DNA of 64,000 nucleotides from Candidatus Fervidifonticultor sextus (GCA_031459875.1 JAVKHQ010000009.1:1-64000); one strand, 5' to 3'. Positions 3,885 to 46,799 are shown, counted from the first letter of the stretch. Made by a program: numbers and translations. Notes: generated by a model not told the origin, from the sequence alone.

Positions 3885-3888
3885 TGGC

Positions 3889-4392
3889 ATGCACACGCGA
3901 ACACTCGTCCTGGCTGCGCTCTTCGCCGCCATCCCGGTGGTGCTCTCGTACGTGCCGGGTGCGATTCCGGTCGCCGGCGCCAAACTGCTGCCCTGGCAGC
4001 ATATGGTGAATGCCATGGCCGGAGTCCTGCTGGGGCCGTGGTACGCGACGCTGGCCGCCACCGTCGCGGCGATCCTCCGCAATGCCCTTGGGGTAGGCAC
4101 GCTGCTGGCGTTTCCCGGCGGCATCCCCGGGGCTCTCGTCGTCGGGTTCGCCTACCGCCTCTGGCAGCGGCCCTGGGTGGGGCTGCTCGAACCGCTGGGC
4201 ACCGGGCCGGTCGGGGCCGTCATCGGGTCGTGGCTCGTGGCGCCGGCGCTGATGGGGAAGGCGATTCCGCTGGCGACGCTGCTGCCGCTCTTCCTGGCAA
4301 GCAGCGTGCCCGGCGCCGTCCTGGGCGTGCTGGTCCTCAGGCTGCTTGCGCGGGCCGGCGTGCCGATGGTGGCGGGCCAGCCCAGCCGGTAG
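3889..4392 (+). CDS. thiW: ECF transporter S component ThiW (thiazole)
   Basis: PWQHMVNAMAGVLLGP, LRNALGVGTLLAFPG and EPLGTG motifs. Confidence 0.9.
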   Translation: MHTRTLVLAALFAAIPVVLSYVPGAIPVAGAKLLPWQHMVNAMAGVLLGPWYATLAATVAAILRNALGVGTLLAFPGGIPGALVVGFAYRLWQRPWVGLLEPLGTGPVGAVIGSWLVAPALMGKAIPLATLLPLFLASSVPGAVLGVLVLRLLARAGVPMVAGQPSR

Positions 4393-4410
4393 GCTCGCTG
4401 CGAGACCCGG

Positions 4411-5253
4411 ATGGCTCTCGACGTCGCCGGACATGCCGCGTCCCTGCTGGAACGCCTCCGCGCGCGCCGGCCGCTGGTCCACCACCTGGCCAACTTCGTG
4501 ACCATGCAGGCCGTGGCCAGCGTCACCAGGGCACTCGGCGCGCTGCCGGTGATGGCGATGGCGCGCGGCGATGCCGAAGAGGCAGCGGGGACGGCCGACG
4601 CGCTCGTCCTCAGCCTGGGGACGCCGACGCCGGAGCGGCTGGAGGCCATGGTGGCGGCGGGCCGGGTCGCCGTGGACCGGCGCATCCCCATCGTGTTCGA
4701 TCCGGTCGGCGCTGGCGCGACCCGGTACCGCCATGACGCGGCGCGGCGCCTGCTCGACGGCGTCCGGGTCACGGTCGTGCGGGCGAACGCCGGGGAGGCG
4801 GCGGCGCTGCTGGGTCGGTCTGGCCTGGTCCGAGGCGTGGAGTCGGTGGCCGAGGCCGAGACCTCCGACCCGCCGCGCCTGGCGCCTGAAGCGGCGCGTG
4901 CGCTCGGGTGCGTGGTCGCGGTCACCGGACCGCGCGATGCCGTCGCCGACGCGCACCACACCTTCATCATCGAAGACGGCCATCCCTGGCTGCCGGCGAT
5001 CTCCGGTTCGGGCTGCATGGCCACGGCCGTGGTGGGCAGTTTCTGTGCCGTCGCCGCGGACGGCGAGGACGACGCCGTGGCCGCAGACTACGCGGTGGCC
5101 GCGGCAGCGGGTCTCGCGTGCTTCCGCGTGGCAGCGGCCCTCGCGGCGAAGGAGGCGCGCGGCCCGGGTTCCCTCGGCTCGGCCCTGCTGGACGCGCTCT
5201 ACCACCTGACCCCGGACCAGGCGCAGCAGGCCGCTCGCATCCGGGTCGTCTGA
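4411..5253 (+). CDS. thiM: Hydroxyethylthiazole kinase
   Basis: PLVHHLANFV, DPVGAGA, RANAGE, ISGSGC and GPGS motifs. Confidence 0.93.
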   Translation: MALDVAGHAASLLERLRARRPLVHHLANFVTMQAVASVTRALGALPVMAMARGDAEEAAGTADALVLSLGTPTPERLEAMVAAGRVAVDRRIPIVFDPVGAGATRYRHDAARRLLDGVRVTVVRANAGEAAALLGRSGLVRGVESVAEAETSDPPRLAPEAARALGCVVAVTGPRDAVADAHHTFIIEDGHPWLPAISGSGCMATAVVGSFCAVAADGEDDAVAADYAVAAAAGLACFRVAAALAAKEARGPGSLGSALLDALYHLTPDQAQQAARIRVV

Positions 5254-5891
5254 TGCGATTCGATCCGGCAGTCTACGTGATCACCGACCGCGAGATCGGG
5301 AAGGGCCGCCCCCTGGAGGACCTCGTGGCCGCGGCGGTTCGGGGCGGCGCGACCATGATTCAGTTGCGCGAGAAGACCCAGCCGGCGCGCCGGCTGCTGG
5401 AGGCCGGCCGCCGGTTGCTGGCCATCACGCGGCCGGCCGGGGTGCCGCTGGTCGTCAACGACCGGGTGGATCTCGCGCTGGTCCTGGAGGCCGACGGCGT
5501 CCACCTCGGGCAGGACGACCTCCCGGTCCCGGATGCCCGACGCCTGCTCGGGCCGGAGAAGATCGTGGGCGCATCGGCCGCGACGGTCGAAGAGGCGCGC
5601 CGCGCCGAGGCCGAGGGCGCCGACTACGTGGGTGTCGGTAGCGTCTTCCCGACCACCTCCAAGCCCGACGCCGGGGACGCCATCGGCCCGCAGGCCCTGA
5701 CGCCGATTCGCGCGGCCGTCCGCATCCCGGTCGTGGCGATCGGCGGGATCACGCACGCCAACGCGGCCGAGGCGATCCGTGCGGGCGCAGATGGGGTGGC
5801 GGTCATCTCGGCGGTGGTGGGCGCCGATGACGTGGAGGAGGCGGCGCGACGCCTGCTGGCCGTGGTGCGGGCCGCGCAGGGTCGGCCGTGA
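5253..5891 (+). CDS. thiE: Thiamine-phosphate synthase
   Basis: YVITD, QLREK, VNDRVD, HLGQDD, PTTSK and AIGGI motifs; ATG overlaps the thiM stop (TGATG). Confidence 0.95.
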   Translation: MRFDPAVYVITDREIGKGRPLEDLVAAAVRGGATMIQLREKTQPARRLLEAGRRLLAITRPAGVPLVVNDRVDLALVLEADGVHLGQDDLPVPDARRLLGPEKIVGASAATVEEARRAEAEGADYVGVGSVFPTTSKPDAGDAIGPQALTPIRAAVRIPVVAIGGITHANAAEAIRAGADGVAVISAVVGADDVEEAARRLLAVVRAAQGRP

Positions 5892-5940
5892 GGGAGACCG
5901 TGCGGACGCCGGCCGTCCCGCCGGATGCGCCAGGACCACC

Positions 5941-7020
5941 ATGACGCGCGTGGCCGATGTGGGCGAACTGGCTTTGCTGGCCCGGATCGACGCCCGCATC
6001 GGGCCCGCATCCGGTGACGTGGTGATCGGCGTTGGCGACGATACGGCCGCGCTGCGCTGGCCCGCCGGCCGTCTGGTCCTGATGACGACCGACGCGCTGG
6101 TCGAGGATGTCCACTTCCGTCGGGCCACGGGCGAACCGGCCGACGTGGGTTGGAAGGCACTGGCGATCAACGCCAGCGACATTGCGGCGATGGGTGGGAG
6201 GCCGACCCATGCCGTCGTCTCGCTGATGCTGCCGGGCGACCTCGATGTGGACTGGGTGGACGGCCTGTACGAGGGCCTCCTGGAGATGGCGCGCGGCGCC
6301 GGCATCGCCCTGGTCGGCGGGAATCTGGCCCAGGCGCCGGCGATCATCGTGGACGTGGCGCTGCTGGGAGAGGTCGACCCCCAGGTCGTGGTCCGCCGGT
6401 CGGGCGCGCGGCCCGGGGACCTGGTGGTCGTTACGGGAACGCTGGGACGCGCGGCCGCCGGCCTGCTGGCGCTCGAGGACGGCGGCAATGCCGGGGTAGG
6501 TGCCCGGCCTCGCGCGGCTCCCGGGGCCGTGGCGCCCAGCGGCGCGGCGCCCGGCGGCACCGCGCTGGAGTGGGTGCTCGCCGCACAGCGCCGCCCCCGG
6601 CCGCGCCTGGCCGAGGGACGCGCCCTGGCCGCGAGCCGCGTCGTCCGGGCGATGATCGACCTCTCCGACGGCTTGGCGATGGACCTCTGGCGGGTGTGCG
6701 AGGCCAGCGGGGTGGGCGTGCGCCTTGACGGCGACCGACTGCCCGTGGATGCCAGCGCCGCCGAGATCGCCGGCGCCGCGGGCCGCGATCCGCTGGACGT
6801 GGCCCTCTTCGGAGGGGAGGACTACGAGCTGCTCTTCGCCGTGGCGCCGCAGGACGCCGACCGGGCCCTGAGGCTGCTCTCCGAGGAGGTCGGGACGCCA
6901 GGAACCGTCATCGGGACCTTCGTGCCGGTGTCGGCCGGCCGGACCATTGTTGTCGGCGGCAGACCCCGGCCGCTGGAACCCGGGGGCTGGACGCATTTTC
7001 GCCACACGCCGGCCCGTTGA
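5941..7020 (+). CDS. thiL: Thiamine-monophosphate kinase
   Basis: GVGDDTA, NASDIAAMGG, IDLSDGL, GGEDYEL and GWTHF motifs. Confidence 0.95.
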   Translation: MTRVADVGELALLARIDARIGPASGDVVIGVGDDTAALRWPAGRLVLMTTDALVEDVHFRRATGEPADVGWKALAINASDIAAMGGRPTHAVVSLMLPGDLDVDWVDGLYEGLLEMARGAGIALVGGNLAQAPAIIVDVALLGEVDPQVVVRRSGARPGDLVVVTGTLGRAAAGLLALEDGGNAGVGARPRAAPGAVAPSGAAPGGTALEWVLAAQRRPRPRLAEGRALAASRVVRAMIDLSDGLAMDLWRVCEASGVGVRLDGDRLPVDASAAEIAGAAGRDPLDVALFGGEDYELLFAVAPQDADRALRLLSEEVGTPGTVIGTFVPVSAGRTIVVGGRPRPLEPGGWTHFRHTPAR

Positions 7021-7063
7021 CGGGCAGGTGGGCCGTGCGGCTGTGGAGGATGGAGGCGATCCT

Positions 7064-7885
7064 GTGACGATCCGCCGGGCCATGACCATCGCGGGCTCCG
7101 ACTCGGGCGGCGGGGCCGGCATCCAAGCCGACCTGAAGACCTTCACCGTCCTCGGCGTGTTCGGGACCTCGGCGATCACCGCCCTGACCGCGCAGAACAC
7201 CACGGGCGTGACCGGTGTCGTGGAGATGCCCCCGGAGTTCGTCGTCGAGCAGATCGACGCCATCATGCGCGACATCGGAACCGACGCCGCCAAGACCGGC
7301 ATGCTGTCCAATGCGGGAATCATCGAGGCGGTGGCCGGCGCGGTGAGGCGATGGGAGATCACCCGGCTGGTGGTCGATCCCGTCATGATCGCCAAGAGCG
7401 GTGCGCCCTTGCTGCGACCCGAGGCCACCGAGGCGCTCCGCCGCGTGCTGCTGCCGGTGGCGCTGGTCGTCACGCCGAACCTGCACGAAGCCGGCGCGCT
7501 GGTCGGCTGGCCGGTCCGGACCCCAGACGACATGCGGGAGGCAGCCCGCAAGATCCACGCCATGGGGCCGCGCCACGTGGTGGTGAAGGGCGGCCACCTG
7601 GAGGGCACCGATCAGGCCGTCGACATCCTCTTCGACGGGGTGACCTTCCAGGAGTTCGCAGCGCCCCGGGCGGAGACGAAGCACACGCACGGCACGGGGT
7701 GCGTGTTCTCAGCGGCGATCGCCGCGGGCCTGGCCAAGGGACTCGAGGTACCCGAGGCCGTGGAGCAGGCGAAAGCGGTCATCACCGCGGCGATCGCCGC
7801 GGGCCTGCCGCTCGGCCAGGGCCACGGCCCCGCCGACCCGACGGCGGCGCTGCACCTGCCGTCCGGCCGTTGTGCCGGTGGGTAG
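7064..7885 (+). CDS. thiD: Hydroxymethylpyrimidine/phosphomethylpyrimidine kinase
   Basis: TIAGSDSGGGAGIQADLKT, KTGML, TPNLHEA and HGTGC motifs. Confidence 0.96.
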   Translation: MTIRRAMTIAGSDSGGGAGIQADLKTFTVLGVFGTSAITALTAQNTTGVTGVVEMPPEFVVEQIDAIMRDIGTDAAKTGMLSNAGIIEAVAGAVRRWEITRLVVDPVMIAKSGAPLLRPEATEALRRVLLPVALVVTPNLHEAGALVGWPVRTPDDMREAARKIHAMGPRHVVVKGGHLEGTDQAVDILFDGVTFQEFAAPRAETKHTHGTGCVFSAAIAAGLAKGLEVPEAVEQAKAVITAAIAAGLPLGQGHGPADPTAALHLPSGRCAGG

Positions 7886-8744
7886 CCGGCGCAGGTGACG
7901 GCGTGGATCCTCCCCCTTCTGATCCCACTCCATCAGGTATGCCTGCCCGCAGGTGCCTGGCCGCCCATTCCTCACGACCGCCAATCCGCACCCGGTCCAG
8001 TCCCGCCTGCCGGGCCGCCTGCTCTACCAGGCGCGGGCTCCACCCAAAGGTGGCCATGATCTCCTCGTCGGGTGAAGCACCCACGATCCCCAGGTATCGT
8101 TCCAGGACCTTCGCCGCCGCCACGACCGTGGTCAGGCGCGAAGCCTGTGCCACGACCTCCGGCATCCACCGGTGGAAGGCGTCCCAGATGAACCCGTGTC
8201 GCCACTCCTCTTCCTCGGCCACCTTGGCCACTAGGAGGCGCTCCTGGAGATCGTCCAGCGCGCGATGGAAGCGGGCTCCGCGCTCCCCCCGCGGCACGAA
8301 CCGGCGCCGCAGGGTCCAGGTCGACACCGGTCCCTCGGCCAGGATCGCCTCGTAGACCGTCCTGGCCATGAGGCTCAGCCGGCCTTCGCAGTAGGCCTGC
8401 AGGTGGTCGTCGGGCTCGCCGACGTTGCCCGAGAGGGCATAGAATGCCGGCAGCAACGCCAGCGAGATGTAGGAAGGCTTGCGTCGGATGACCTTGCCAT
8501 AGTACGCCCAGCGCCCTGTCGCCAGGTCGTCCTTCCACTGCCACGCCCAGGACCACATCCGGTCACTGCTGCGCGTGGCCAGGACGTCGAACAGCCCCGG
8601 CAGGCCGCCGGGCCCTCCGGTGAAGGCGTAGCAGAAGCCAAGGGCGTCGATGAAGCGCAGGGCTGCTCGCCGGGTCCGCACCCGATGCGCTCGGAGCACG
8701 GCGCGGCGATACCGTCGAACGGCCGCAGGCGTCAGCACCCGCAT
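7782..8744 (-). CDS. AlkZ/YcaQ-like winged-helix protein (DNA crosslink repair glycosylase-related)
   Basis: ALRFIDALGFC, WQWKDDL...YYGKV.RRKPSYIS and wH-like GPVSTWTLRR; C-terminal tail overlaps the thiD end. Confidence 0.55.
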   Translation of the reverse strand: MRVLTPAAVRRYRRAVLRAHRVRTRRAALRFIDALGFCYAFTGGPGGLPGLFDVLATRSSDRMWSWAWQWKDDLATGRWAYYGKVIRRKPSYISLALLPAFYALSGNVGEPDDHLQAYCEGRLSLMARTVYEAILAEGPVSTWTLRRRFVPRGERGARFHRALDDLQERLLVAKVAEEEEWRHGFIWDAFHRWMPEVVAQASRLTTVVAAAKVLERYLGIVGASPDEEIMATFGWSPRLVEQAARQAGLDRVRIGGREEWAARHLRAGIPDGVGSEGGGSTPSPAPATHRHNGRTAGAAPPSGRRGRGPGRAAGPRRSPR

Positions 8745-8916
8745 CCCCTGGGGGATACGCGGTCGCGGCGGGCCCCTCCTCGCTGACATCCCACCTGGGT
8801 GGGGGAGGGGAGCGCCGCGCCGGAGACGAACCTACGACGGGTTGCCGCACGCCAGCCGTCCGGACCGTGCCGCCAGGGAAGATCGCAGCCCGGGAAAAGG
8901 GGGGGCGGGCCGACGA

Positions 8917-10257
8917 GTGACTGATCGCATGCAGGAGGTCTTGGCGTCCACGCTCCCCAACGGGCTCCGGGTCCTGATCCAGGAGTCGCACACGGCGCCT
9001 GTGGCCACGTTCTGGATGTGGTATCGCGTGGGAAGCCGCAACGAGATGCCCGGGCTCACCGGCATCTCCCACTGGGTCGAGCACCTGTTGTTCAAGGGGA
9101 CGCCCAGGCATCCCGCGGGCATGCTCACCCGCCTCATCGACCGGCTCGGCGGCCGGTGGAACGCCTTCACCTGGAAGGACTACACGGCCTACTTCGAGGT
9201 GCTCCCGGCCGAACACCTCGAGACCGCCATCCGGCTGGAGGCGGACCGCATGCAGAACACCGTCTTCGACCCGGAGGTCGTCGCCAGCGAGCGCACCGTC
9301 ATCATCTCGGAGCGGGAGGGCGCGGAGAACTTCCCCAGCTACCTCCTGGGGGAAGAGGTGGAGGCGCTGGCCTTCAAGGTCCATCCCTACCGCCACCCGG
9401 TCATCGGGTGGAAGGAGGACCTGCGCGCGATCACGCACGACGACCTCTACCGTCACTACCGGACCCACTACCACCCGAACAACGCGGTGGCCCTGGCTGT
9501 GGGCGACTTCGAGCCCGAGGGCGTGCTGCGGATGATCGAGGAGGCCTTTGGTCCGATCCCGCCCGGCGACCCCCCGCCGCCGGTGCGATCGGTCGAGCCC
9601 GAGCAGTCGGGGGAGCGCCGGGTGATCCTCCGGCGCCCGGGCGGCGGGACCGCTTATCTCCACTTGGCCTTCCACGTTCCGCCAGCGGCCCACCCGGACC
9701 TGCCGGCGCTCATGGTCACCGACGGCCTCCTCACGGGCTTCAAGGGGGTCGGCTCCTTCAACGGGACCGGCAGCGGGCGCAGCAGCCGTCTCTACCGGGC
9801 CCTCGTGGACGGCGGGCTGGCCGCCACCGTGGGATCGTCGATCACGCCCAGCATCGACCCCACGCTCTTCCGGATCACGGCGACCGTCCGCAGCGGCGTC
9901 GAGGTGGCCGCGGTGGAAGCGGCGGTGGCCGCCGAAATCGCGCGGCTGCACGACGAGCCGGTGGAGGAGGCCGAACTTGCCAGGGTCAAGCGGCAGGCCC
10001 GCGCGCAGTTCGTCTACCTGCGCGACGGCGTCTTTCCTCTGGCGCGGGCGCTGGGCGCCATGACCGTGGTGGATCGGCCCGAGGCCCTGCCCGCCCTGGC
10101 CGAGGCCATCGAACGGACGACGGCGGAGGACGTCGCCCGCGTGGCGCGGACCTACCTCACAGAGCGGCGCCGGACGGTCGGCTGGTACGTCCCGGACGAC
10201 AGCCGTCCCGGGCAGGCTGGGGGACGCCGGTGCGCGACCCGGGAGGGCGCGGCATGA
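8917..10257 (+). CDS. M16 family zinc peptidase, catalytic subunit
   Basis: TLPNGL, VGSRNE and HWVEH (HxxEH) LLFKGT motifs. Confidence 0.92.
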   Translation: MTDRMQEVLASTLPNGLRVLIQESHTAPVATFWMWYRVGSRNEMPGLTGISHWVEHLLFKGTPRHPAGMLTRLIDRLGGRWNAFTWKDYTAYFEVLPAEHLETAIRLEADRMQNTVFDPEVVASERTVIISEREGAENFPSYLLGEEVEALAFKVHPYRHPVIGWKEDLRAITHDDLYRHYRTHYHPNNAVALAVGDFEPEGVLRMIEEAFGPIPPGDPPPPVRSVEPEQSGERRVILRRPGGGTAYLHLAFHVPPAAHPDLPALMVTDGLLTGFKGVGSFNGTGSGRSSRLYRALVDGGLAATVGSSITPSIDPTLFRITATVRSGVEVAAVEAAVAAEIARLHDEPVEEAELARVKRQARAQFVYLRDGVFPLARALGAMTVVDRPEALPALAEAIERTTAEDVARVARTYLTERRRTVGWYVPDDSRPGQAGGRRCATREGAA

Positions 10258-11519
10258 CCGTCCCGATCGCCGCCGCCCAGGTCGCGCGGACCGTCCTGCC
10301 CAACGGCCTGACCTGCCTCGTACGGCCGTTTCCCGAGACCGGCGTGGCGACGATTCACGGGTATGTGAAGGCCGGCGGGATCTTCGATGGCGCGCGGCCG
10401 GGGCTGGCGCGTTTTGTCGGCTCGATGCTCATCCGCGGCACGCACCGGCGGTCTGCCCGGGACCTGGCCGAAGACCTCGACGCCATGGGGGCCGTCCTCG
10501 CCGTCTCGCCCGGCACCGAGACCACGGTGATCACCGGCCGGGCGCTTGCTGACGATCTCCCCAGACTCCTGGCCGCAGCCGCCGAGATCCTCACCGAGCC
10601 CGCCTTTCCCGTCGACGAGGTCGAGAAGGTGCGCGGCGAACTCCTCACCGCCCTGCGCGTCAACAGCCTGGACACGCGCCAGGTCGCGGAACGGATCTTC
10701 CGCCGGCTCACGTATCCCGAGGGCCATCCCCACAGCCGTCATCCCGACGGCGAGGAGGCGGTCCTTGAGGCGTTGCAGCCGGATGACCTGCGCGCCTTCC
10801 ACGCCCGGCACTTCCTGCCCGGGGCCACGGTGATCGCCGTGGTGGGCGATGTGGACCCCGGGCAGGCGACCGACCAGTTGGCCAGGGCGTTCGGCGAGTG
10901 GGCTTGCGGTCCGTGGCGAATACCGGCGTTCCCTCCCCCCGCCGGGTCTGTCGTCCGCCGGCAGGAGGAGGCGGTCGTCCCGGGCAAGACCCAGTCGGAC
11001 CTGGTCCTCGGAGGTCCCGGCGTGGCCCGGACCGATCCCGACTACTACGGGGTCATGATGGCCAACCTGCTCCTGGGACAACTGGGGATGATGGGCCGCA
11101 TCGGCCGGGCCGTCCGTGAGCAGCAGGGGATGGCGTACTACGCGTTCAGCGAACTGCGGGCCGGGCTGCTGGCCGGGCCCTGGTGGGTGCGGGCCGGGGT
11201 CAATCCGGTCAACGTGGAGCGCGCCGTCGCCGCGGTCCTCCGCGAGGTCGCCGACCTCCAGGCCCACGGACCGGCCCCAGACGAGCTCGCCGACGCCCGG
11301 ACGTTCCTGGTCGGCTCCCTGGCGGTCCGTCTGGAGTCCAGCGCCGGTATCGCGCAGACGCTGGCCGACATCGAACTCTACGACCTGGGCCTGGACCACC
11401 TGGAACGCTACCCGTCCATCATCGCCGGGGTAAGCCGGGACGACGTCGTGGCCGCCATCCGACGGTTCCCCACCGACGGTGCCGTCCTGGCAATTGCCGG
11501 CCCCGAGCGTCAGCCGTGA
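10254..11519 (+). CDS. M16 family peptidase, non-catalytic partner subunit
   Basis: LPNGL and VREQQGMAYY motifs; HxxEH replaced by RFVGS; 4-bp overlap with the previous gene. Confidence 0.88.
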   Translation: MTVPIAAAQVARTVLPNGLTCLVRPFPETGVATIHGYVKAGGIFDGARPGLARFVGSMLIRGTHRRSARDLAEDLDAMGAVLAVSPGTETTVITGRALADDLPRLLAAAAEILTEPAFPVDEVEKVRGELLTALRVNSLDTRQVAERIFRRLTYPEGHPHSRHPDGEEAVLEALQPDDLRAFHARHFLPGATVIAVVGDVDPGQATDQLARAFGEWACGPWRIPAFPPPAGSVVRRQEEAVVPGKTQSDLVLGGPGVARTDPDYYGVMMANLLLGQLGMMGRIGRAVREQQGMAYYAFSELRAGLLAGPWWVRAGVNPVNVERAVAAVLREVADLQAHGPAPDELADARTFLVGSLAVRLESSAGIAQTLADIELYDLGLDHLERYPSIIAGVSRDDVVAAIRRFPTDGAVLAIAGPERQP

Positions 11520-12202
11520 GTCCCTCCGCCGCCCAGGCGCGGCCGACGCCGGAGACCATCGCGATCCTGGGCGGGACGGGCAATCTGGGGCTCGGTCTGT
11601 CCGCCCGGCTGTGCGCGGCGGGATACGACGTCGTCATCGGATCCCGGGACGCCGCGCGGGGAGCGGAGGCTGCCCGGCGGCTCAGTCGGCCCAACGCGCG
11701 CGGGGCGACCAACGCCGAGGCGGCCCGGGCGGCCTCGATCGTGGTCGTGGCGTGCCCGGCCGAAGGGCATGCCGCATTGGTCTCCGGCCTGGCCGGCCTG
11801 CTGGCGGGCCGGATCGTCGTGGACGCCACGGTCCCCATGGCTGCGGGGTACGTCTATGCGCCGCCGGCGGCGGGGTCAGCCGCCGCGGAGACCCGGGCGC
11901 TGGCCCCGGGTGCGCGCGTGGTGGCCGCGTTCCACACTCTGTCGGCGCGGCTGCTCGCGGACCTCTCGCGGCCGCTCGACCAGGACGTGCTGGTCTGCGG
12001 CGATGACCCCGAGGCGCGAGCGCGGATCATCGACCTGGCCGATGCGATCGGCGCCCGCGGGGTGGATGCCGGGAACCTGGCCGCCGCCGCCACCATCGAG
12101 GCCCTGGCCGTGCTCGTCATCGGGCTCAACATCCGCTACCGCCGCCGCGATCTCGGCATCCGGATTGCCCACCTCCCGGCCCACGCCCGGCCGCGCCCCT
12201 GA
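11516..12202 (+). CDS. npdG: NADPH-dependent F420 reductase
   Basis: IAILGGTGNLG, IGSRD, SAAAE, AAFHTLSA and VCGDD motifs. Confidence 0.88.
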   Translation: MSPSAAQARPTPETIAILGGTGNLGLGLSARLCAAGYDVVIGSRDAARGAEAARRLSRPNARGATNAEAARAASIVVVACPAEGHAALVSGLAGLLAGRIVVDATVPMAAGYVYAPPAAGSAAAETRALAPGARVVAAFHTLSARLLADLSRPLDQDVLVCGDDPEARARIIDLADAIGARGVDAGNLAAAATIEALAVLVIGLNIRYRRRDLGIRIAHLPAHARPRP

Positions 12203-12233
12203 TGCGCGCAGAAGCCGGCCGGGCGCGACCTCG

Positions 12234-12989
12234 ATGAAGACCCTGATCGCCTGGGCACCGGAACCGTTCCCGGAGATCCGTCCCGGCGATGATCTCACCG
12301 GCGCGATTGCCGCCGCGCTGCGCGGCGCGGGTCTTATCCCCGAGCCGGGGGACGTGGTCGTGGTGGCCCACAAGATCGTCTCCAAGGCGGAGGGCAGCGT
12401 CGTGGATCTCCGCCGCATCACCCCCGGCCCTGAGGCTGCGGCGCTGGCGGAGCAGGCGCGCAGGGATCCGCGCCTCGTCGAGGTCATCCTGCGCGAATCC
12501 CGCGCCGTGCGCCGGGTGCGGCCCGGCCTGATCATCGCCGAGCACCGGCTGGGATTCGTCTGTGCCAATGCGGGGGTGGACCACTCCAACGTCGGCCTGG
12601 GCGACGACGTGGTCGTGACGCTGCCGCGCGACCCCGACGCCTCTGCGGAACGCATCCGGGCCGGGCTGCGCCAGGCGTTCGGTGCCGATGTGGGCGTGAT
12701 CATCAACGACAGCCACGGCCGGCCCTTCCGCCAGGGGACCACCGGGGCCGCCATCGGCGCCGCCGGCCTTCGGGTCCTGCGCTCGTATGTGGGGGAAGCG
12801 GACCGCTACGGCTACATCCTGCGGGTCTCGGTGGAGGCCGTCGCCGACGAGTTCGCGGCGCTGGCGAACCTGCTCCAGGGTCAGGCCGCCGAGGGCAGGC
12901 CGGTGGTACTGGTCCGGGGAGTTGACCATGCGGGGACGGGTCATGCCTCCGATCTGGTGCGGTCCGAGGAAGAGGACCTGTTCAGGTAG
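12234..12989 (+). CDS. cofE: Coenzyme F420-0:L-glutamate ligase
   Basis: PEIRPGDDL, KIVSKAEG, CANAGVDHSN, LPRDPDASA and DSHGRPFR motifs. Confidence 0.93.
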   Translation: MKTLIAWAPEPFPEIRPGDDLTGAIAAALRGAGLIPEPGDVVVVAHKIVSKAEGSVVDLRRITPGPEAAALAEQARRDPRLVEVILRESRAVRRVRPGLIIAEHRLGFVCANAGVDHSNVGLGDDVVVTLPRDPDASAERIRAGLRQAFGADVGVIINDSHGRPFRQGTTGAAIGAAGLRVLRSYVGEADRYGYILRVSVEAVADEFAALANLLQGQAAEGRPVVLVRGVDHAGTGHASDLVRSEEEDLFR

Positions 12990-13028
12990 AAGTCTGCGGC
13001 TTGGCGGACAAGCCTTTCCGAGGCCTGG

Positions 13029-13202
13029 GTGACCGAAGCCGACTGCGGCAGGGGCCGAGATATCAGCCAGAGGCATCGAGACCAGAGCTACACGCTGACT
13101 GATGCCATGTCATTTGGGATCGTGGAACGGCTCCGCGTACGCCTCGCCTTCACGTTTGACACCCACTTCGACCAGTACGGATTCCAGCCGCTCCTCCCCT
13201 GA
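13029..13202 (+). pseudogene. C-terminal remnant of a PIN-domain (VapC-like) toxin
   Basis: Translates to VTEADCGRGRDISQRHRDQSYTLTDAMSFGIVERLRVRLAFTFDTHFDQYGFQPLLP*, matching the VapC C-terminal pattern D..YSLTD..SF..M.......AFTFD.HF...GF; N-terminal half absent. Confidence 0.75.
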
Positions 13203-13214
13203 CGAGGCGCAGCG

Positions 13215-14531
13215 ATGATCGTCATCGCCACCGGCATCTCCGGCAGCGGCAAACTCAGCGAGGCCGGCGGCGGACCGGGCTACCTCGTCCGGCTCATCGA
13301 AGAGGGCACAGCTCGCATCGCCGCCGCCCAGCGGGAGGGCCGGTGGACCTCGCCGATCCGGCGCCTGCGCTACATCGACATGGGGGGCCTCATGCTGTCG
13401 CGGGCGCGCGACCTGGGCATGGACGTGCGCACGGAGACGATCCTGGACATGGCGCCGGAGGCCCTCCAGGAACTGCGCGCCATCGCGTTCACCGAGGTCG
13501 TCAACGACCCGGCGCTGTGGGAGCCCGACCTGTGCACGATCCTGGTGACCCACGCGTGCTTCTGGTGGAAGGGGTACCTGATCCCGGGCCTCGACACCCA
13601 CTACCTCAAACTGCTCTTTGACGAGACGCGCCGGCGCATGCCGCCCCAGGACGTGCGGGCCGTCCAGGAGACCCTGCCGGGCCTGCGCCTGGCCCCGCCG
13701 GTCCGTCCCGAGGGGATCTTCTACGTGACGATCGTCGACGGCATCTACCAGATCCAGCGCCGGCTGGACGCCACCGAGCAGTGGCGGGGTCGGCTGACCC
13801 CCAACGAGCTCATCGCCTGGCAGGAGCAGGAAGTCTTCATTTCCAAGATGTTCGCCGCCTACGAGCGCGTGCCGCACTACCTGATCGCCCACGACGAGCC
13901 CACCAGGACGCTGTTCGACCTCATCTGCTTGAAAAGGCCCCTGATCTACCTGGGCTACCCCATCACCAACCTGCGCCGTGAAGGGCAGACGCGGCTGATT
14001 GAGATGGCGCGCGAGTTCGGGGAACGTCTGCGCGAGCACTTCGTCGTCTTCGACCCGCTGTCGGTCAAAGACGAGGAAGCGGCGGCCTTTGCGAAGATCG
14101 GTGAGGAGGAGTTCCAGCAGCAGTTCTCCCCCGCGCAGCGGGCCGAGATCGAGGCCTGGGCCGGCTCCCTGGAGGCGCTGCGCGAGTGGGCCCGCTCCCT
14201 GGACGAGCGGACACGGCTGCAGTTGGGACGCGCCACCGTGGTGCGCGATCTCCGTCTCATCGACCAGGCAGACCTCAACGTGGTTTTCTACCCCACCAGC
14301 CAGATGTCGTTTGGAGTCCTCTCGGAGATGATCCACGCCCACACGACGGGCAAGAAGGTCTACATCGTGTACCCGTTCCGCAGCCTCTCACCGTTTTTGG
14401 AGTTCTACGCCACCCGGGTCTACAATCCGGGCCCTGGAGAACCGGACCCCCAGACCCCCGCGGACATCGAAGCGTTCATGGGACGGGCCGCTGCCCGGCT
14501 GCTTGAGGATCTCCTGGCCCAGACTGGCTGA
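13215..14531 (+). CDS. Archaeal-type adenylate-kinase-like P-loop domain fused to a nucleoside 2-deoxyribosyltransferase/Rcl-like N-glycosidase domain
   Basis: N-terminal IVIATGISGSGK and ILVTHACFWWKGYLIPGL; C-terminal IYLGYPI, VRDLRLIDQAD and SFGVLSEMIHAHTTGKKVY. Confidence 0.7.
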   Translation: MIVIATGISGSGKLSEAGGGPGYLVRLIEEGTARIAAAQREGRWTSPIRRLRYIDMGGLMLSRARDLGMDVRTETILDMAPEALQELRAIAFTEVVNDPALWEPDLCTILVTHACFWWKGYLIPGLDTHYLKLLFDETRRRMPPQDVRAVQETLPGLRLAPPVRPEGIFYVTIVDGIYQIQRRLDATEQWRGRLTPNELIAWQEQEVFISKMFAAYERVPHYLIAHDEPTRTLFDLICLKRPLIYLGYPITNLRREGQTRLIEMAREFGERLREHFVVFDPLSVKDEEAAAFAKIGEEEFQQQFSPAQRAEIEAWAGSLEALREWARSLDERTRLQLGRATVVRDLRLIDQADLNVVFYPTSQMSFGVLSEMIHAHTTGKKVYIVYPFRSLSPFLEFYATRVYNPGPGEPDPQTPADIEAFMGRAAARLLEDLLAQTG

Positions 14532-14539
14532 GGGACGGC

Positions 14540-14971
14540 ATGCAGGTGGAGACGGTGCTCTCCGGACGGCCGATCGAGAGTGCCTCGGCCCTGGTCCACG
14601 CCATGTTCGCAGCCGAGCTGGACAGCCCCGTGCTGACCTCCGGGCACGACCTCGGGGCGCTGGCCGGCCCGTTGCGGGTGGACGTGGCCCGGGACGCTGA
14701 GGTCTACACGAAGATTTCGGGGAAGGAGCAGCGGCTGTCTGCCGGGGACATGGTCGTCCGCGACGGGGGAGGGGTCATCGCTTCTGTGGTTTACGGGCCG
14801 GACTTCCGTACGCGCATACGGTTGGAATCCAGCGCCGCGCTCTTTGGGGCGTGGGGGCCGGTGGGGCTCACGACGGACGTCGTCGCCGCGCACCTCGACC
14901 GGCTCGCGGGCCTGGTGCGGGAGGAGTGGCCGGACGCGGCGGTCGAGCCCCCTCGGCTCTTCATGGGATGA
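14540..14971 (+). CDS. B3/B4 (PheRS-beta-like, tRNA editing) domain protein, probably N-terminally truncated
   Basis: SALVHAMFAAEL, TSGHDL, GDMVVRD..GVIASVVYGPDFRTRI; shorter than typical standalone B3/4 proteins. Confidence 0.65.
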   Translation: MQVETVLSGRPIESASALVHAMFAAELDSPVLTSGHDLGALAGPLRVDVARDAEVYTKISGKEQRLSAGDMVVRDGGGVIASVVYGPDFRTRIRLESSAALFGAWGPVGLTTDVVAAHLDRLAGLVREEWPDAAVEPPRLFMG

Positions 14972-15006
14972 CCTGATTTGCCCTTTGCTACAATGCTGCT
15001 GCAGCC

Positions 15007-15984
15007 ATGCCTGCGAACCTAACACCCGAATACCTGGCCGCAGACCGCAAGTTCAAGGAAGCCACCACACCCCAGGACAAGCTGGCGGCGCTCGAAGAGA
15101 TGCTGGCCGTTATCCCCAAGCACAAGGGGACCGAGAAGATGCAGGCCGACCTCAAGCGCCGCATCGCCAAGCTGCGGACGGAGATGCAGCGCCGCAAGGG
15201 CGCGGCCCGGGCCCGGCCCTTCTACCACGTAGAGCGGGAAGGCGCCGGCCAGATCGTCCTGGTCGGCGCCCCCAACGCTGGCAAGTCGTCGATCCTTGCG
15301 GCGCTCACCAACGCCACGCCCGAGATCGCCCCCTACCCGTTTACGACCCGCGTACCCCTGGCCGGGATGGCGGCCTACGAGGACGTGCAGATCCAGCTCG
15401 TGGACCTGCCGCCGGTCAGCCAGGAGTCGGCGGAAGGCTGGCTCTTCGCCCTCATCCGCGGCGCCGACGGCGCGCTGGTGATCGTGGACCTGGCCGACCA
15501 GGACCTGCTGGCGTCTACAGAACAACTCCTGACCCTCCTGACGTCTGCCCGCGTGACGCTGATCCCGCCGGGGGGGCCGCGCGGCGCCGGTGAGGTGCCG
15601 GCCATCTTCGTGGCGGCCAAGCTCGACGCGCCGGGCGCCCGCGATACCCTTGAAGTCTTCAAGGAGTTCTACGGGTCCCGCCTCCCGGTGCTCCCCATCT
15701 CGGCGGAGCAGGACGTCAATCTCGGCCCGCTGCGCCGGGCGATGTTCGAGATGCTGGGCATCATCCGGGTTTACAGCAAGAAGCCCGGCAAGAAGCCCGA
15801 CCTGCAGGTCCCCTACATCCTGCGGCGCGGGACCACGGTGCTGGACGCCGCCGCGGTGGTCCACAAGGACTTCGCGGAGCGGCTGCGGTACGCGCGCCTG
15901 TGGCGGCGGGGGGAAATCGAAGGGATGATGGTCGGCCGCGACCACCTGCTGCAGGACAGCGACATCCTCGAACTGCACGCCTGA
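15007..15984 (+). CDS. DRG/Obg-family GTPase with TGS domain
   Basis: MPANL, PKHKGTEK, GAPNAGKS, YPFTT, DLP and C-terminal TGS (VHKDF...LQDSDILELH). Confidence 0.92.
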   Translation: MPANLTPEYLAADRKFKEATTPQDKLAALEEMLAVIPKHKGTEKMQADLKRRIAKLRTEMQRRKGAARARPFYHVEREGAGQIVLVGAPNAGKSSILAALTNATPEIAPYPFTTRVPLAGMAAYEDVQIQLVDLPPVSQESAEGWLFALIRGADGALVIVDLADQDLLASTEQLLTLLTSARVTLIPPGGPRGAGEVPAIFVAAKLDAPGARDTLEVFKEFYGSRLPVLPISAEQDVNLGPLRRAMFEMLGIIRVYSKKPGKKPDLQVPYILRRGTTVLDAAAVVHKDFAERLRYARLWRRGEIEGMMVGRDHLLQDSDILELHA

Positions 15985-43007: not shown

Positions 43008-43754
43008 TCACCCTGCAGGGCGTGGCCCCACGTGCGTCCCCCGGCGGAGCGCCCATACCCCCCAGATGATCAGGACCATCGCCGGAATCTGCCCCAGCGT
43101 CAGGGGGCCCAGCGCCCGCAGGTCGCTGCGCAGCATGTCCAGGAACAGGCGGCCGATCGAGGTGGGCACCACGATGCCCCAGAAGACCTGGCCGTCGAAC
43201 CTCCGGGTTGCCGCCACCCTCCGCGCGTAGAGCAGGATGCCCGCGGCGAAGAGCATCTCGTAGATCTGCAGGGGATGGCGTGGCACATCGGGCGCCGTTG
43301 CGAACCGGACGCCCCACGGCAGCGTGGTCGGATCGCCGTAGAGCTCCCCGTTGATGAAGTTGCCGAGGCGGACGAAGATGTTGCCGATGGGAATCGCCCA
43401 GCCGAATGCGTCCGCGAAGGTCCACATGGAGATGCCGCTGCGCCGGGAGGCCCAGGCCACGTAGAGCAGGCCGGCGGCGATGGCGCCGTGGGAGGTCAGC
43501 CCGCCCTGGTCCACCCGGACGACGTCGATCAGGTGGCGGAACTCGCCCGGGTGGGAGAGGACATAGCCCACCCTGGCGCCCACCAGGGCCGCGAGCGTGA
43601 ACCCGACGGTGGTGCGGTCGAGGACCGCCGGGGGAATCCCGATGCGGGGTCCGTAGCGGTAGGCGACCACCATGCTGAGCGCAATGGTGGTCGCCAGCAG
43701 GAGGCCGTACCACCGCACGGCCAGGGGGCCGATCTGGATGATCACGGGGTCCAC
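43008..43754 (-). CDS. lgt: Prolipoprotein diacylglyceryl transferase
   Basis: VRWYG, GARVGYV, RLGNFINGELYG and RHPLQIYE motifs. Confidence 0.95.
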   Translation of the reverse strand: MDPVIIQIGPLAVRWYGLLLATTIALSMVVAYRYGPRIGIPPAVLDRTTVGFTLAALVGARVGYVLSHPGEFRHLIDVVRVDQGGLTSHGAIAAGLLYVAWASRRSGISMWTFADAFGWAIPIGNIFVRLGNFINGELYGDPTTLPWGVRFATAPDVPRHPLQIYEMLFAAGILLYARRVAATRRFDGQVFWGIVVPTSIGRLFLDMLRSDLRALGPLTLGQIPAMVLIIWGVWALRRGTHVGPRPAG

Positions 43755-43802
43755 AGCCGGGGTCAGTCTAGCACCGGCTGTCCGGGCCGCTCAAGGTGCC
43801 AG

Positions 43803-43930
43803 GGGGGTACTTGATAAGAAGCCTGAAACGTCACCCCCTCCATATTACGGTGTCAAGAAGGCAGGGCATCCTGGCCGTGGGCGTTCCCTCTGGGGCTGCT
43901 TCCCGGGGTCCAACGTATGGGCCGCCTCCA
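43803..43930 (+). repeat. Left terminal inverted repeat
   Basis: GGGGGTACTTGATAAGAAGCCTGAAACGTCA...GGGCCGCCTCCA; roughly 89% identical (by hand) to the reverse complement of 46596-46724. Confidence 0.9.
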
Positions 43931-44062
43931 GGATCGGCGGTGGTTGTTTGGGGTGCACCTGAATATTGTCCGGGAAGAGAACGCCGTCTCCGTAGGAGCT
44001 CCTGGCCGCGCGAGAGAGGTCAAGTGTCAGATTTCCTGTAAAAGTTTCGGGCCTGGGTCATG

Positions 44063-45352
44063 CTACTTCACCTTCCTCCCCAGCCTGGTCACACGGTGCG
44101 GTCTCGCATGACGCAGTACGCTGATCCCCAACTCCTGGCGGAGCTGCCGCAGCTGCTCACGGTGCCGATCGATCATCGGGATCCGGTGCCCGCGCTGGCT
44201 CGCCCGGACCAGGGTGGCGTAGACGAGCTTCAAGCAACTGCGCTCATCAAAGAAGCGCGGGATGATCTTCGTCCGTCGGCGCTCCTCCAGAAAGCTGCGC
44301 TCGATGAGGTTCGTGGTGCGGACGTGCTTGCGGTGCGCGGCGGGCAACCGCAGGTGCGCCAGCGTGGCGTCTGGGTCATCCGCCAGCGACGCCATGGCGG
44401 CAGGAAACTCCCACTCAAAGCGCGCCCGCGTGGCTTGCAGGGCCTGCTGGCCGGCCTCGTACGTCGGGGCATCCCGCACGCCCACCAGGTGCGCCTTCAC
44501 CTCGGCGCGGGCATACTCGGGCACTTTGGCCAGGACGTTGCGCATCTTGTGGACCCAGCAGCGCAGCCGCAGACTCTTCGGCCAGATGTCCCTGATCGCC
44601 GCACCAGCCCCGGCGCCCCGTCGCTGGTGACCCTCACCGGCGTGCGCAGCCCGCGGCGCACCAGGTTCCGCAGCATCGCCAGCCAGGCCCCGTAGCTCTC
44701 CTGATTGCCCAGGGGCAGGTGCAGCAGCACCTTGCGCCCATCGGCCAGGATCGCCCCAGCGCACCGCAGCGCCTCGGCCGGGCCGCCCTGCAGCCGCAGC
44801 GACTCGTAAATCGCATCCAGGAAGCGGTACTCGACCGCGAAGCCCGACAGGTCCCGCTTGGTGAACGCTTCGTAGTCTTCCCACAGGCGGTCCGTCAGTT
44901 CGCTCACCGCGCTGGCGCTCACCAGACAGCGGCCCGTGCCGTCCCGGAGCGCGTCCTCAATGTCGCGCGTGCTCAGGCCCCGCGCATCCATCTCCGCGAC
45001 CAGCCGCTGCAGCACATCGGTGTGCCCCCGCAGGAAGGTCAGGAGCTTCGATTGGAAGGGTTCCGGCGTCTGCCGGACTTGCGGGAGCTGCGGGGATCTC
45101 GCCTTCCGCCGTGCGCCCGCGCCCCGGTTCGTACCCGGTGCGGTACCCACGGTGCGGCTGGCCTCCGCGGTGGCGGACGTAGCGTTCCCGACCCAGGAAG
45201 TCCGTCACCTCCTCTTCCAGCAGCTCCTGAGCCAGCCGCTGGGCGCCCAGGCGGAGCAGGGTGCTGGTCACCTCAGCCCTGCCATCGACTCCGTCTCTGA
45301 GGCCGCGATCAATCTCTTCCCGACCACGCCGGCTTGGTGCTACCTTGGGCAT
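44063..45352 (-). pseudogene. IS256-family transposase, frameshifted in two places
   Basis: Split over three frames: LLEEEVTDFLGRERY..GYRTGY; GLSTRDI..FLDAIY..VTSDGAPGL; RCWVHKMRN..RTTNLIER. Frameshifts near 45085 and 44605. IS256-like end AGTGTCAGATTTCCTGTAAAAG at ~44023-44044. Confidence 0.9.
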
Positions 45353-45396
45353 AGGTCTGGGCTCCGCGCCGGGATCTGAGGAGTGTAACTGTCCCA

Positions 45397-46110
45397 TCGC
45401 TATTCGAAGACGCGCCTGAGGACGGTGTCTGTTCAAGGAGAAGGCTCGATGACTTCCGCACCGAGGCGGACGTCCGCAATCTTCTCGGCACCCTCTACAG
45501 AGCGGTCCGTGACGCCAAGCGCACCTACGGCGTGGTGCACTTGTTGCTGTCGGGCGGTCGAAAGGTCATGAGCGTGGCAGCGATGGTGGTGGCGCAGCTT
45601 CTGTTCGGACCCGAGGATCGCGCCTGGCACCTTCTGAGTGAGGGTTGGGCGCCCGGAGCACCGCGGAAGATGCACCTGGAGCTCGGCGACGTCGTGCACC
45701 TCGTACCGATCCCCGTCCTGCGGTGGACCGACTCAGGGGTAATGCTGGCAGCACTCGCAGTGCTCGACGATCCCTTGGAGGCTATCCGTCGCTACGAGGA
45801 GATCGTCCGAGGCGAGCGTATGCGGAGCCGGCGTGGATTCGTCGGGCGGTGGCTTACCCTTGCGGAAGGGGACGTGGCGCGTCTGGCCTGCCGGGGGCTC
45901 GACAACGCCGCGATTGCCCGTCGCCTGGGCCGCAGTCCCAGGACCGTGGCCAACCAGCTTACCGCCATATGCGACAAGCTGGAAGACTGGCTTGGCTTCC
46001 AGGGCCCCCGGCTGACCGGGCCCTGCTGCTGGCTGAACTCGCCCCGTATTTCGAGCTCGAGAACGTGTCTAGAACGGAGGACGGGAACAGGTCCCCAAGC
46101 AGAAGGGTAA
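45397..46110 (+). pseudogene. CRISPR-associated CARF (Csx14/NE0113-like) protein with C-terminal LuxR-type HTH, 5'-truncated and frameshifted
   Basis: LDDFRTEADVRNLLGTLYRAV...VHLLLSGGRKVMS..AQLLFGPEDRAWHL (CARF GGRK motif), then LTLAEGDVARLACRGLDNAAIARRLGRSPRTVANQL (LuxR HTH). Confidence 0.7.
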
Positions 46111-46181
46111 ACGCTTCTCATGCGCGGTGGGCCAAGGGCGGCTAATCTCCTCCCGAAGACATCGTCGGGGAGTGCGAGGAA

Positions 46182-46345
46182 GTGCGGTACCGGGCCTTGT
46201 TGCAGGAGGTAAGTGCCTTCGAGGTCGGGCGCTACAAGGTCCGGTGGGTATCGGATGCCGGTGGGCGCTTGCCGTGCTTCCTCGGCCCTACCTTCAGAGG
46301 AGGTTTGGGCCATGTGCTACGCCGCACGGCCTGCCCCCTGGGCAG
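46182..46345 (+). pseudogene. cas6: N-terminal fragment of Cas6 (RAMP) endoribonuclease
   Basis: LPCFLGPTFRGGLGHVLRRTACP matches the Cas6 N-terminal LP.FLG.T.RG..G..LR...C motif; remainder missing. Confidence 0.65.
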
Positions 46346-46417
46346 CCGTGGCAGCTGGAAAAACCGAGACCCGAATTGCCACTGGGCCCGGTCAGATGCG
46401 CTAGGCGGACCGTTGGG

Positions 46418-46575
46418 GTGAAGCGAATCGGGCTTTCCCCAGACAAGCTGGCCTTCTACGACGCGCTGGCCGAAAGCCAAAGGCCTCCAGGCACTGCTCG
46501 TTGCTGGACAGGCAAGAGAAAGCGACGCTGACCGTTCTCGAGCAGGTAGAGACCCTTGCTGAGCTTTGGGTACGA
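46418..46575 (+). pseudogene. hsdR: C-terminal fragments of type I restriction endonuclease HsdR (DUF3387 region)
   Basis: IGLSPDKLAFYDALAES followed, in another frame, by DRQEKATLTVLEQVETLAELW; both are typical HsdR tail motifs, with the intervening segment deleted. Confidence 0.7.
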
Positions 46576-46595
46576 GCGGTCCAAAGGCTCCTGTT

Positions 46596-46724
46596 TGGAG
46601 GCGGCCCACACATTGGACCCCGGGAAGCAGCCCCGGAGGGAACCCCCACGGCCAGGGTGCCCTGCGTTCTGGACACCGTAAATGGAAGGGGTTTGACGTT
46701 TCTGACTTCTCATCAAGTACCCCC
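46596..46724 (-). repeat. Right terminal inverted repeat
   Basis: Reverse complement GGGGGTACTTGATGAGAAGTCAGAAACGTCA...GGGCCGCCTCCA. Confidence 0.9.
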
Positions 46725-46799
46725 TCAAGGTCCCAGAGGTCTGCAGGGTGGCGGCCAGGTCGAGAGGAAGTCTGGCATCCAGAAGGGAGGGGCACGGTC

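Follow-up and report, generated by a model that had tools for sequence, protein, structure and literature searches.

The closest described counterparts of the element reported here are casposons, transposons that encode Cas1. In the passages of Krupovic 2014 (PMC4046053) that describe their ends, casposon terminal inverted repeats (TIRs) span 25-602 nt and target-site duplications (TSDs) have a median length of 15; the supplement passages give TIR starts of GGGA, GGGT, GGGG, GAGG or CCCC. According to the same passages AceAut-C1, from a thermophile, carries the direct repeat (DR) CGTCAATTCTGGCAG and a TIR beginning GGGATAGTAG..., and the TIR of NitAL212-C1 begins GGGGTATG.... Here we describe a 2.9-kb insert in a 64,000-nt stretch of the genome of Candidatus Fervidifonticultor sextus (JAVKHQ010000009.1:1-64000, hereafter the window) that has the structural features of a casposon, its TIRs and junction rule, and lacks the defining genes. 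The insert is probably the decayed, non-autonomous remnant of a Cas1-driven, casposon-like transposon of the bacterial lineage that includes AceAut-C1.

The insert occupies the spacer between lgt (minus strand; PF01790, E 4e-53) and def (plus strand; PF01327, E 1.5e-32), two essential genes that both remain intact open frames, and is bounded by two inverted repeats of ~128 bp that are 89% alike. A repeat search placed these arms at 43803-43930 and 46596-46724 and resolved a 36-nt block (86%) and a 96-nt block (89%) that are collinear across a 1-nt indel; BLAST within the genome itself aligned arm to arm with an E value of 4e-42. Alignment with MAFFT revealed that both arms start with GGGGGTACTTGAT and that the likeness stops after ~128 nt. 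Outside the arms lies a direct repeat, TCAAGGTGCCAG at 43791-43802 and TCAAGGTCCCAG at 46725-46736, identical at 11 of 12 positions. The imperfect inverted repeats and the near-identical 12-mer that a first-pass annotation of the window had described in the divergent lgt/def spacer are therefore confirmed by the repeat search, the alignment and the Pfam assignments. That annotation had also proposed looking for an empty lgt-def site in a relative, and such a site is present in the same-genus genome G002. Both flanks have a match on its contig C2 (left 94%, right 93%), and these matches share 19 nt. The insert is absent there, TCAAGGTGCCAG is present as a single copy, and the aligned site reads ...GGCCGCTCAAGGTGCCAGAGGTCTGC.... 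Five same-genus genomes were searched; the other four matched lgt only (~75%) and are thus uninformative on the site. The insert is a true TIR/TSD insertion. Its filled junctions are present in the hot-spring runs X1, possibly the source sample, and X2 (contigs of four runs from one study); among the contigs listed for these runs, none spans across the insert, and among the loose ends listed, none falls at a TIR boundary.

The duplication can also be read as 14 bp long, with CTCAAGGTGCCAGG as the left copy and CTCAAGGTCCCAGA as the right. These copies are identical at 12 of 14 positions, each differs by one base change from the G002 target CTCAAGGTGCCAGA, and with this reading both ends of the element begin GGGGTACTTGAT (GGGGTAC). 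We infer that the TSD is 14 bp instead of 12 bp; the 14-bp reading gives exactly the limits 43790-46737 drawn by the first-pass annotation.

This register is the one found at Cas1-bearing elements in the same phylum. Cas1 (PF01867) occurs in 16 of the 93 other phylum genomes, where most copies score like CRISPR Cas1 and a few score lower. One low-scoring copy, in a genome of the same GTDB family as the window genome (G012), is a 592-aa homologue (PF01867, E 1.6e-36, domain residues 98-368) that matches PDB chain 6opm_A with an E value of 2e-18. The table entry is named Cas1 only; we take this chain to be the M. mazei casposase. The gene lies inside a 12.8-kb element (C1:1955.5-1968.3 kb) whose inverted repeats start GGGATAAGAGCC, are near-identical for ~50-66 nt and continue more weakly to ~370 nt, and which is flanked by a perfect 14-bp repeat, GTCAAACGGCGAGG. 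The element also encodes an N6/N4 methylase, a ParB-N/helix-turn-helix (HTH) protein and a PLD-like nuclease, and no polymerase domain was found in it. At another, different site, in G020, GTCAACGCCACCGG directly precedes GGGATAAGAGCC. The weak-Cas1 loci G059:C45 and G053:C8 had no usable TIRs, and relatives of the G012 Cas1 were absent from the viral contigs.

Full-length homologues of the G012 Cas1 (38-43% identity, E about 1e-98 to 1e-51) were detected in 5 of 401 sampled genomes of the Acidobacteriota, the phylum of G094. TIR pairs span the Cas1 gene at five of the seven loci; no pair was found at G127_C17, where the contig ends 1.3 kb past Cas1, or at G253_C10. Including one tandem neighbour, this gives six bounded elements of 5.3-16.4 kb at five independent sites, and all six have ends of the form GGG(G)[AT][AT] and a perfect 14-bp TSD (15 bp in G479_C4) starting GTCAA.

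Taken together, the junctions of G012, G020 and the five Acidobacteriota sites (n = 7) define a rule for Cas1-solo elements: a 14-bp TSD starting xTCAA, the reverse of the -35 motif TTGAC, a -10-like hexamer 17-18 nt on, and an element start of GGG(G)[AT][AT]. Read on the other strand, TTGAC[CA] occupies one register at 7/7 comparator junctions. The -10-like hexamer is found 17-18 nt on in six of them (TACAAT, TACAAT, TAAACT, TAAGAT, TAAACT and TACACT), and none was identified at G470_C2. G012 and G020 both have TTGACC/TACAAT, which in G012 is TTGACC-N18-TACAAT. The window reads TTGAGC-N18-TAGACT with GGGGTAC in the comparator register and deviates only at TSD position 1, so that it shares its junction geometry with the Cas1-bearing elements. 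Both hexamers of the putative lgt promoter are conserved in G002. As a guide to background, TCAA occurs at 0.0017 per position per strand in the window's own genome, the junction pattern [CG]TCAA-N9-GGG[GAT][AT][AT] occurs 14 times on both strands of its 3.05 Mb (~6.1 million positions), and TTGA[CG]N-N16-18-TANANT occurs 51 times. The junction patterns were derived from the other elements and not from the window, but were picked after the data had been seen, and these rates are rough guides rather than formal probabilities.

Comparison with described casposons extends the likeness to AceAut-C1. Its TSD is (C)GTCAATTCTGGCAG and that of the window CTCAAGGTGCCAGA, both with xTCAA-N9 immediately before the G-run, while the TIR starts are GGGATAG and GGGGTAC, respectively (PMC4046053, sequences from the passages on AceAut-C1). 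In the same source, as far as its passages on TIRs and insertion sites go, casposons share long TIRs with the window element (602 nt in AceAut-C1 and 116 nt in StrAlb-C1, against 128 nt at 89% identity here, within the range of 25-602 nt), as well as intergenic insertion and, in some, a nested insertion sequence (IS). Unlike casposons in those passages, the window element has no Cas1, PolB or HNH gene, and TSD base 1 is C where AceAut-C1 has G. BLAST could not align the window TIR to that of AceAut-C1. The first-pass annotation had raised the idea of a casposon derivative, which gains support from a junction that fits the rule drawn from seven other insertion sites and from AceAut-C1. Its claim of long TIRs ending in GGGG as a general casposon trait goes too far, given the range of starts and lengths in the Krupovic 2014 passages. 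Targeting of -35 boxes by casposons was not found in a non-exhaustive literature search, and the word promoter has no occurrence in the main text of Krupovic 2014 (PMC4046053).

The G012 and G020 elements come from the same GTDB family and share with the window a 14-bp GTCAA TSD at a -35/-10 promoter and a G-run terminus; the G012 element further shares defence-like cargo (the methylase and the PLD-like nuclease) and decay or tandem stubs. It differs in encoding the 592-aa Cas1 and in having no CRISPR effector genes inside, and its TIR start, GGGATAAGAGCC, has only the word GATAAGA(A)GCCT in common with the left arm of the window (p~0.02). The polymerase-less contigs with 'family 5' casposases of Salgado 2022 (PMC9755687) resemble the window in their hot-spring habitat, in highly variable gene neighbourhoods and in a PolB that is mostly absent; the portion of that study considered here describes TIRs on some contigs, one of which is alignable to AceAut-C1. 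Those elements retain Cas1, unlike the window, and section 18 of the study is silent on promoter targets.

The TIRs themselves were compared by anchored alignment of their first 40 nt. The left arm resembled G264_C1 (p=0.002), both arms resembled G253_C27 (left p=0.008, right p=0.015), and p values of 0.03-0.04 were obtained with G020. Positions ~22-27 of the left arm form an A-rich motif and positions 31-35 a C-run, and this succession is common to the window, G253_C27 and G264_C1; a similar A-rich word lies at ~20-28 nt in the AceAut-C1 and NitAL212-C1 ends as published in the passages cited above.

Beyond this the arms have no detectable relatives. The 3.05-Mb assembly (67 contigs, 70% G+C) contains no third copy, and a short-word BLAST search of it that included contig ends gave only chance matches of 12-23 nt. 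Sixty relatives yielded only chance matches of 19-58 nt at inner arm positions, and BLAST against the 93 other genomes of the order, which are all those available for the phylum, returned nothing beyond chance. The intact copies that the first-pass annotation had hoped a BLASTN search with the TIR would recover are thus found neither in the genome itself nor in those 93. There was no blastn match among 72,556 plasmids and 50,697 phage records, no relative in an exact-pattern scan of viral contigs, and no Rfam match. The exact pattern had five matches in species-representative genome contigs, none continuing past the pattern; in JGI metagenome contigs the inner 22-mer had no match and the 18 specified terminal bases had 18, none extending and most belonging to one conserved coding sequence. 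These scans demand exact matches, and diverged copies would escape them. In both X1 and X2 the one contig with the arms has the same, or nearly the same, read depth as the arms themselves. A dispersed repeat of the miniature inverted-repeat (MITE) or repetitive extragenic palindromic (REP) type, which the annotation had named as the finding that would tell against it, is rejected by the two genome matches and by this single-contig depth.

No open reading frame (ORF) of the insert matched PF01867, a polymerase domain or a recombinase in the Pfam search, and the only transposase inside is that of a nested IS256. The whole genome, which is 96% complete, likewise had no PF01867 match, while the same search matched in 7 of 14 genomes as a control. 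Because neither the insert nor the genome has Cas1, and the insert has no polymerase, the insert is a non-autonomous relic. The view of the first-pass annotation that this is a collapsed mobile-element shell without its integrase holds, and the element is best filed as a relic made by a casposon-type integrase. Since the genome is without Cas1, the CRISPR-related fragments within the insert are also without a resident adaptation module.

Several observations weigh against a casposon-type origin. The unambiguous duplication is only 12 bp, and the 14-bp version requires two substitutions. TSD base 1 is C in the window and G in 7/7 comparators. Of the four family-3 DRs in the Krupovic 2014 passages (PMC4046053), GTCAA is present only in AceAut-C1 and not in NitAL212-C1, StrAlb-C1 or HenMar-C1, and at a further Cas1-solo locus, in G088, TCAA lies at N6, one base out of register, with no clear -10. 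A strict sigma-70 consensus scan calls no promoter in the region. TIR likeness to the Cas1 elements is weak: local alignment to G012 gave p~0.02 for the left arm and p~0.5 for the right, and the anchored comparison of seven comparators with two arms amounts to 14 tests, six of them at p<0.05 and none with four of the comparators. No remnant of Cas1, PolB or another casposon core gene was found in the insert; tblastn with 13 proteins of the G012 element gave a best E value of 0.005 that fell inside the CARF gene, and with the G012 Cas1 a best E value of 0.14. Finally, PolB is undetected in the comparators, with PF00136 in 0/5 genomes (working control) and PF03175 in 0/5 (silent control). The comparators are therefore not casposons in the strict self-synthesizing sense, and we refer to them as Cas1-solo TIR/TSD transposons.

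Other known transposon groups were considered and rejected. Tn3-family elements have a 5-bp TSD, inverted repeats (IRs) of ~38 bp and TnpA, with IS1071 reaching ~110-bp IRs. They resemble the window element in their G-run termini and, in rare members, in long IRs, but its TSD of at least 12 bp, its 128-bp arms and the lack of TnpA or a resolvase do not fit. Tn7-like elements have TGT...ACA ends, a 5-bp TSD and TnsB sites, whereas the window element has GGGG(G)TAC ends, duplicates no fewer than 12 bp of its target and shows no strong sub-repeats in its arms. An IS256-type transposase pseudogene does lie inside the insert. As a mover of the whole insert IS256 is rejected by the 128-bp outer arms and the TSD of at least 12 bp, and by its own end, which falls at 44019 and is 88 bp in from the left arm; the idea of a bacterial 'Pack-MULE' driven by the Mutator-type transposase inside is rejected likewise, as the IS256 has its own ends and an 8-bp TSD. 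IS256/Mutator-like elements have IRs of 18-39 bp and DRs of 8-9 bp, and some families target the upstream edge of sigma-A promoters, in the relevant passages of Guerillot 2014 (PMC3942029).

Between the arms lie only fragments. The IS256-type Transposase_mut pseudogene is frameshifted, with an ATG at 45353. Its left end, GGTCAAGTGTCAGATTTCC..., is intact and was defined by a 185-bp fragment in G005 and a full copy in G041, the latter with ~27-bp inverted repeats and an 8-bp TSD. The right IR and the TSD were looked for in the window and neither was found. Homology to the adjacent CARF gene starts at or before 45427, ~30 bp short of the expected IS256 end. Because the right IR is missing and CARF homology begins before that end, the right IS256 boundary is a deletion junction. 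The CARF-HTH gene matches PF09623 (E 2.7e-25, profile 67-198), lacking the first ~70 profile positions at the N-terminus, and PADLOC CARF3 (E 3e-73, profile 73-259 of 279), with a frameshift near 46020. It is 71% identical to residues 142-341 of P0001; its best homologues are 78-82% identical and 283-318 aa in full length, several are named 'CRISPR-associated ring nuclease' or Csx14, and 8 of the 93 other phylum genomes carry a homologue. The 88 bp next to the left arm were considered as the lost CARF N-terminus and ruled out, having no similarity to it. The cas6 fragment (PADLOC PDLC01477, E 3.2e-7, profile 2-49 of 296) aligns to the gene immediately downstream of CARF-HTH in G042 and G040; in G042 the cas6-like gene is followed by an HD-domain frame, read as cas10. 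CARF-HTH and then cas6 is how such a type III locus begins, and the window keeps both this order and the strand. The two hsdR scraps are matched by community contigs only at 46446-46479 and 46515-46574, with divergence on both sides, and gave no match in NCBIfam or PADLOC. No interior piece (IS256, CARF, cas6 or hsdR) has a second copy in the assembly. The contents listed by the first-pass annotation are thus supported for the CARF-HTH gene, cas6 and the nested IS256 pseudogene, and weakly for the hsdR tail (PF11867, E 0.11).

How the insert was integrated can be explained in other ways. It might be a relic of an unknown DDE-type family with 12-bp TSDs and long G-ended TIRs, its likeness to Cas1 junctions being a coincidence helped by a promoter-rich spacer. 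The certain 12-bp duplication, the symmetric G5 ends, the lack of a Cas1 remnant and the weak TIR similarity to Cas1 elements would all suit such a family, and TSDs of 10-15 bp are reached by the IS4, IS481 and ISA1214 groups in ISfinder. The only transposase present, though, belongs to the nested IS256 with its own ~27-bp ends and 8-bp TSD, the outer TIRs have no match among plasmids or phages, and the TCAA register, the -35/-10 context and the GGGG[T][A] start agree with 7/7 Cas1 junctions in a pattern that occurs only 14 times in 6.1 million positions. We regard this explanation as improbable, and the undescribed transposon family that the first-pass annotation had offered as its alternative is now a less likely reading than a casposon derivative. 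If a site-specific recombinase of the tyrosine or serine type had placed the insert as an integrative island, the 12-mer would be its att core. This would also account for direct repeats around the insert and one copy at the empty site, and one Acidobacteriota Cas1 element does encode a serine recombinase. Such an origin is very hard to credit: 128-bp inverted repeats that directly abut both repeat copies are a signature of transposition and not of attL/attR, there is no recombinase gene or fragment inside, and comparable elements elsewhere have differing 14-mers with only GTCAA in common. The geometry of the junctions argues instead for a casposase as the enzyme that presumably performed the integration.

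Whether the defence genes travelled with the element is a separate question. The retained CARF-to-cas6 order speaks for a once-contiguous locus, and the genes may have been cargo of the element. That the shell once carried a complete type III CRISPR-Cas effector locus and a type I restriction system on a Cas1-driven transposon is a tentative proposal. About as plausible is a casposase-integrated shell in which the defence fragments were never functional cargo, being either a junk-filled derivative mobilised in trans or scraps that came later through IS256-linked recombination. The IS256 without a right end that abuts a truncated CARF gene is a rearrangement junction of the kind such a history would leave, and the flanks of the insert-free G002 site have diverged by only ~6%, a short span for many deletions to have occurred. 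In addition, the searches turned up no intact Cas1 element with a type III locus inside, and no long inverted repeats bracket the type III loci in G042, G012 or G045 within 80-100 kb. Set against this, the fragments keep the order and strand of an intact locus, so that deletion of a contiguous locus fits better than piecemeal capture; the G012 Cas1 element does carry defence-like genes (its N6/N4 methylase and PLD-like nuclease); and the assembly holds no second IS256 or fragment copy that could have served as a recombination partner. The word cargo in the first-pass annotation thus gains from a gene order that matches intact type III loci and loses from the lack of an intact Cas1 element with such a locus, and we still infer it rather than observe it.

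Feature coordinates in the window, in order of position
Feature	Position	Strand	Basis and remarks
Putative lgt promoter	43765..43794	-	-35 TTGAGC (43794-43789), 18-nt spacer, -10 TAGACT (43770-43765)
Left target-site duplication	43790..43803		CTCAAGGTGCCAGG, 14-bp reading; certain 12-bp core 43791-43802; register as in 7 Cas1-solo junctions
Left TIR	43804..43930	+	Starts GGGGTACTTGAT; repeat search and alignment
DNA between left TIR and IS256 end, 88 bp	43931..44018		No blastn match to CARF/type III regions of four relatives; single copy in genome
Nested IS256-family element	44019..45426	-	PF00872 in two frames; right IR missing
Csx14-type CARF + LuxR-HTH gene	45427..46145	+	PF09623, PADLOC CARF3; truncated, frameshifted
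cas6 start, ~50 codons, then unrelated sequence	46182..46340	+	PADLOC Cas6 PDLC01477
Probable hsdR C-terminus, two scraps in two frames	46425..46575	+	PF11867 E 0.11; weakly supported
Terminator-like hairpin 9 nt inside right TIR	46564..46586	+	Consensus match only; 3 found vs 1.5 expected in shuffles
Right TIR	46596..46723	-	89% identical to left arm
Right target-site duplication	46724..46737		CTCAAGGTCCCAGA; 12-bp core 46725-46736

A casposon-type history of the locus, the most likely one, would have run as follows. A casposase, supplied by the element itself or in trans by a sister copy, would have recognised the GGGG-ended termini and joined them to the lgt-def spacer at two points offset by 14 bp, one of the cuts falling within the -35 box of the lgt promoter. 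Filling of the gaps would have duplicated CTCAAGGTGCCAGA and so rebuilt a -35/-10 promoter beside the left end. Later an IS256 may have landed inside the element, and several deletions, at least one of them ending at the IS256, would have stripped the integrase and nearly everything else, leaving a 5'-truncated Csx14-type CARF-HTH gene, the start of cas6 and the hsdR scraps. Such an element is presumably unable to move any longer in this genome.

If this reading is correct, the geometry of its junctions is enough to link an orphan TIR/TSD relic, with neither an enzyme nor sequence relatives, to the integration machinery behind it, and the rule reaches a hot-spring phylum, polymerase-less Cas1 elements and a gutted copy. 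Under the rule, the cut made by these Cas1 transposons would fall within the -35 box and 14 bp would be duplicated, with the host promoter surviving intact. If the type III CRISPR and restriction fragments were cargo, Cas1 transposons could ferry CRISPR effector loci, which bears on how adaptation and effector modules were united. A casposase transposon and a CRISPR effector module would then have been joined as one mobile unit aimed at -35 boxes, the kind of intermediate postulated by the casposon-origin scenario for CRISPR-Cas. The window copy is dead and single and by itself probably has no biological effect; it sets the promoter regions of lgt and def 2.9 kb apart. The lgt GTG start is at 43754, 10 nt past the -10-like hexamer, and lgt would be nearly leaderless if the predicted promoter and start codon are real.

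Other features of the Cas1-solo loci were noted along the way. In G012 (C1:1953000-1971000) the element occupies 2508-15363, and past its right TSD a further ~69-nt TIR start, an apparent tandem stub, follows (15364-15430). Tandem insertion at the same site followed by decay would explain it, and the layout resembles a CRISPR array. In G253 (C27:205646-227442) two different TIR elements, of 16.4 kb with Cas1 and of 5.3 kb, stand head to tail with one middle copy of a 14-bp TSD, GTCAAACGGATCAC, in common; the first has 127-nt TIRs, nearly the length of those in the window. Besides Cas1, the Cas1-solo element at G479:C37:142033-156582 has genes for a large serine recombinase, a trypsin-TPR protein and a 990-aa protein. 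The 990-aa ORF had no Pfam or PDB match and could be an unrecognised replication enzyme. The G088 locus (C323, about 2866-3810) contains a C-terminal Cas1-solo fragment, 49% identical to the G012 protein and ~540 nt inside a GGGGGTAAAG end, and looks like another decayed element of the same lineage in the same phylum.

Three further observations concern type III loci and cas6. A 276-aa ORF without a Pfam family, beside a rhomboid protease gene in the window's own genome (G000, C59:6192-7022), is 44% identical over 39 aa to the cas6 fragment of the insert. In G012, two 45-bp direct repeats (C1:113448-113492 and 122414-122456), 93% identical and 9 kb apart, lie beside an intact CARF-HTH gene. 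The same contig has three pairs of 35-37-nt direct repeats ~70-80 nt apart, at about 98.3, 100.3 and 151.8 kb, which we take as CRISPR arrays.

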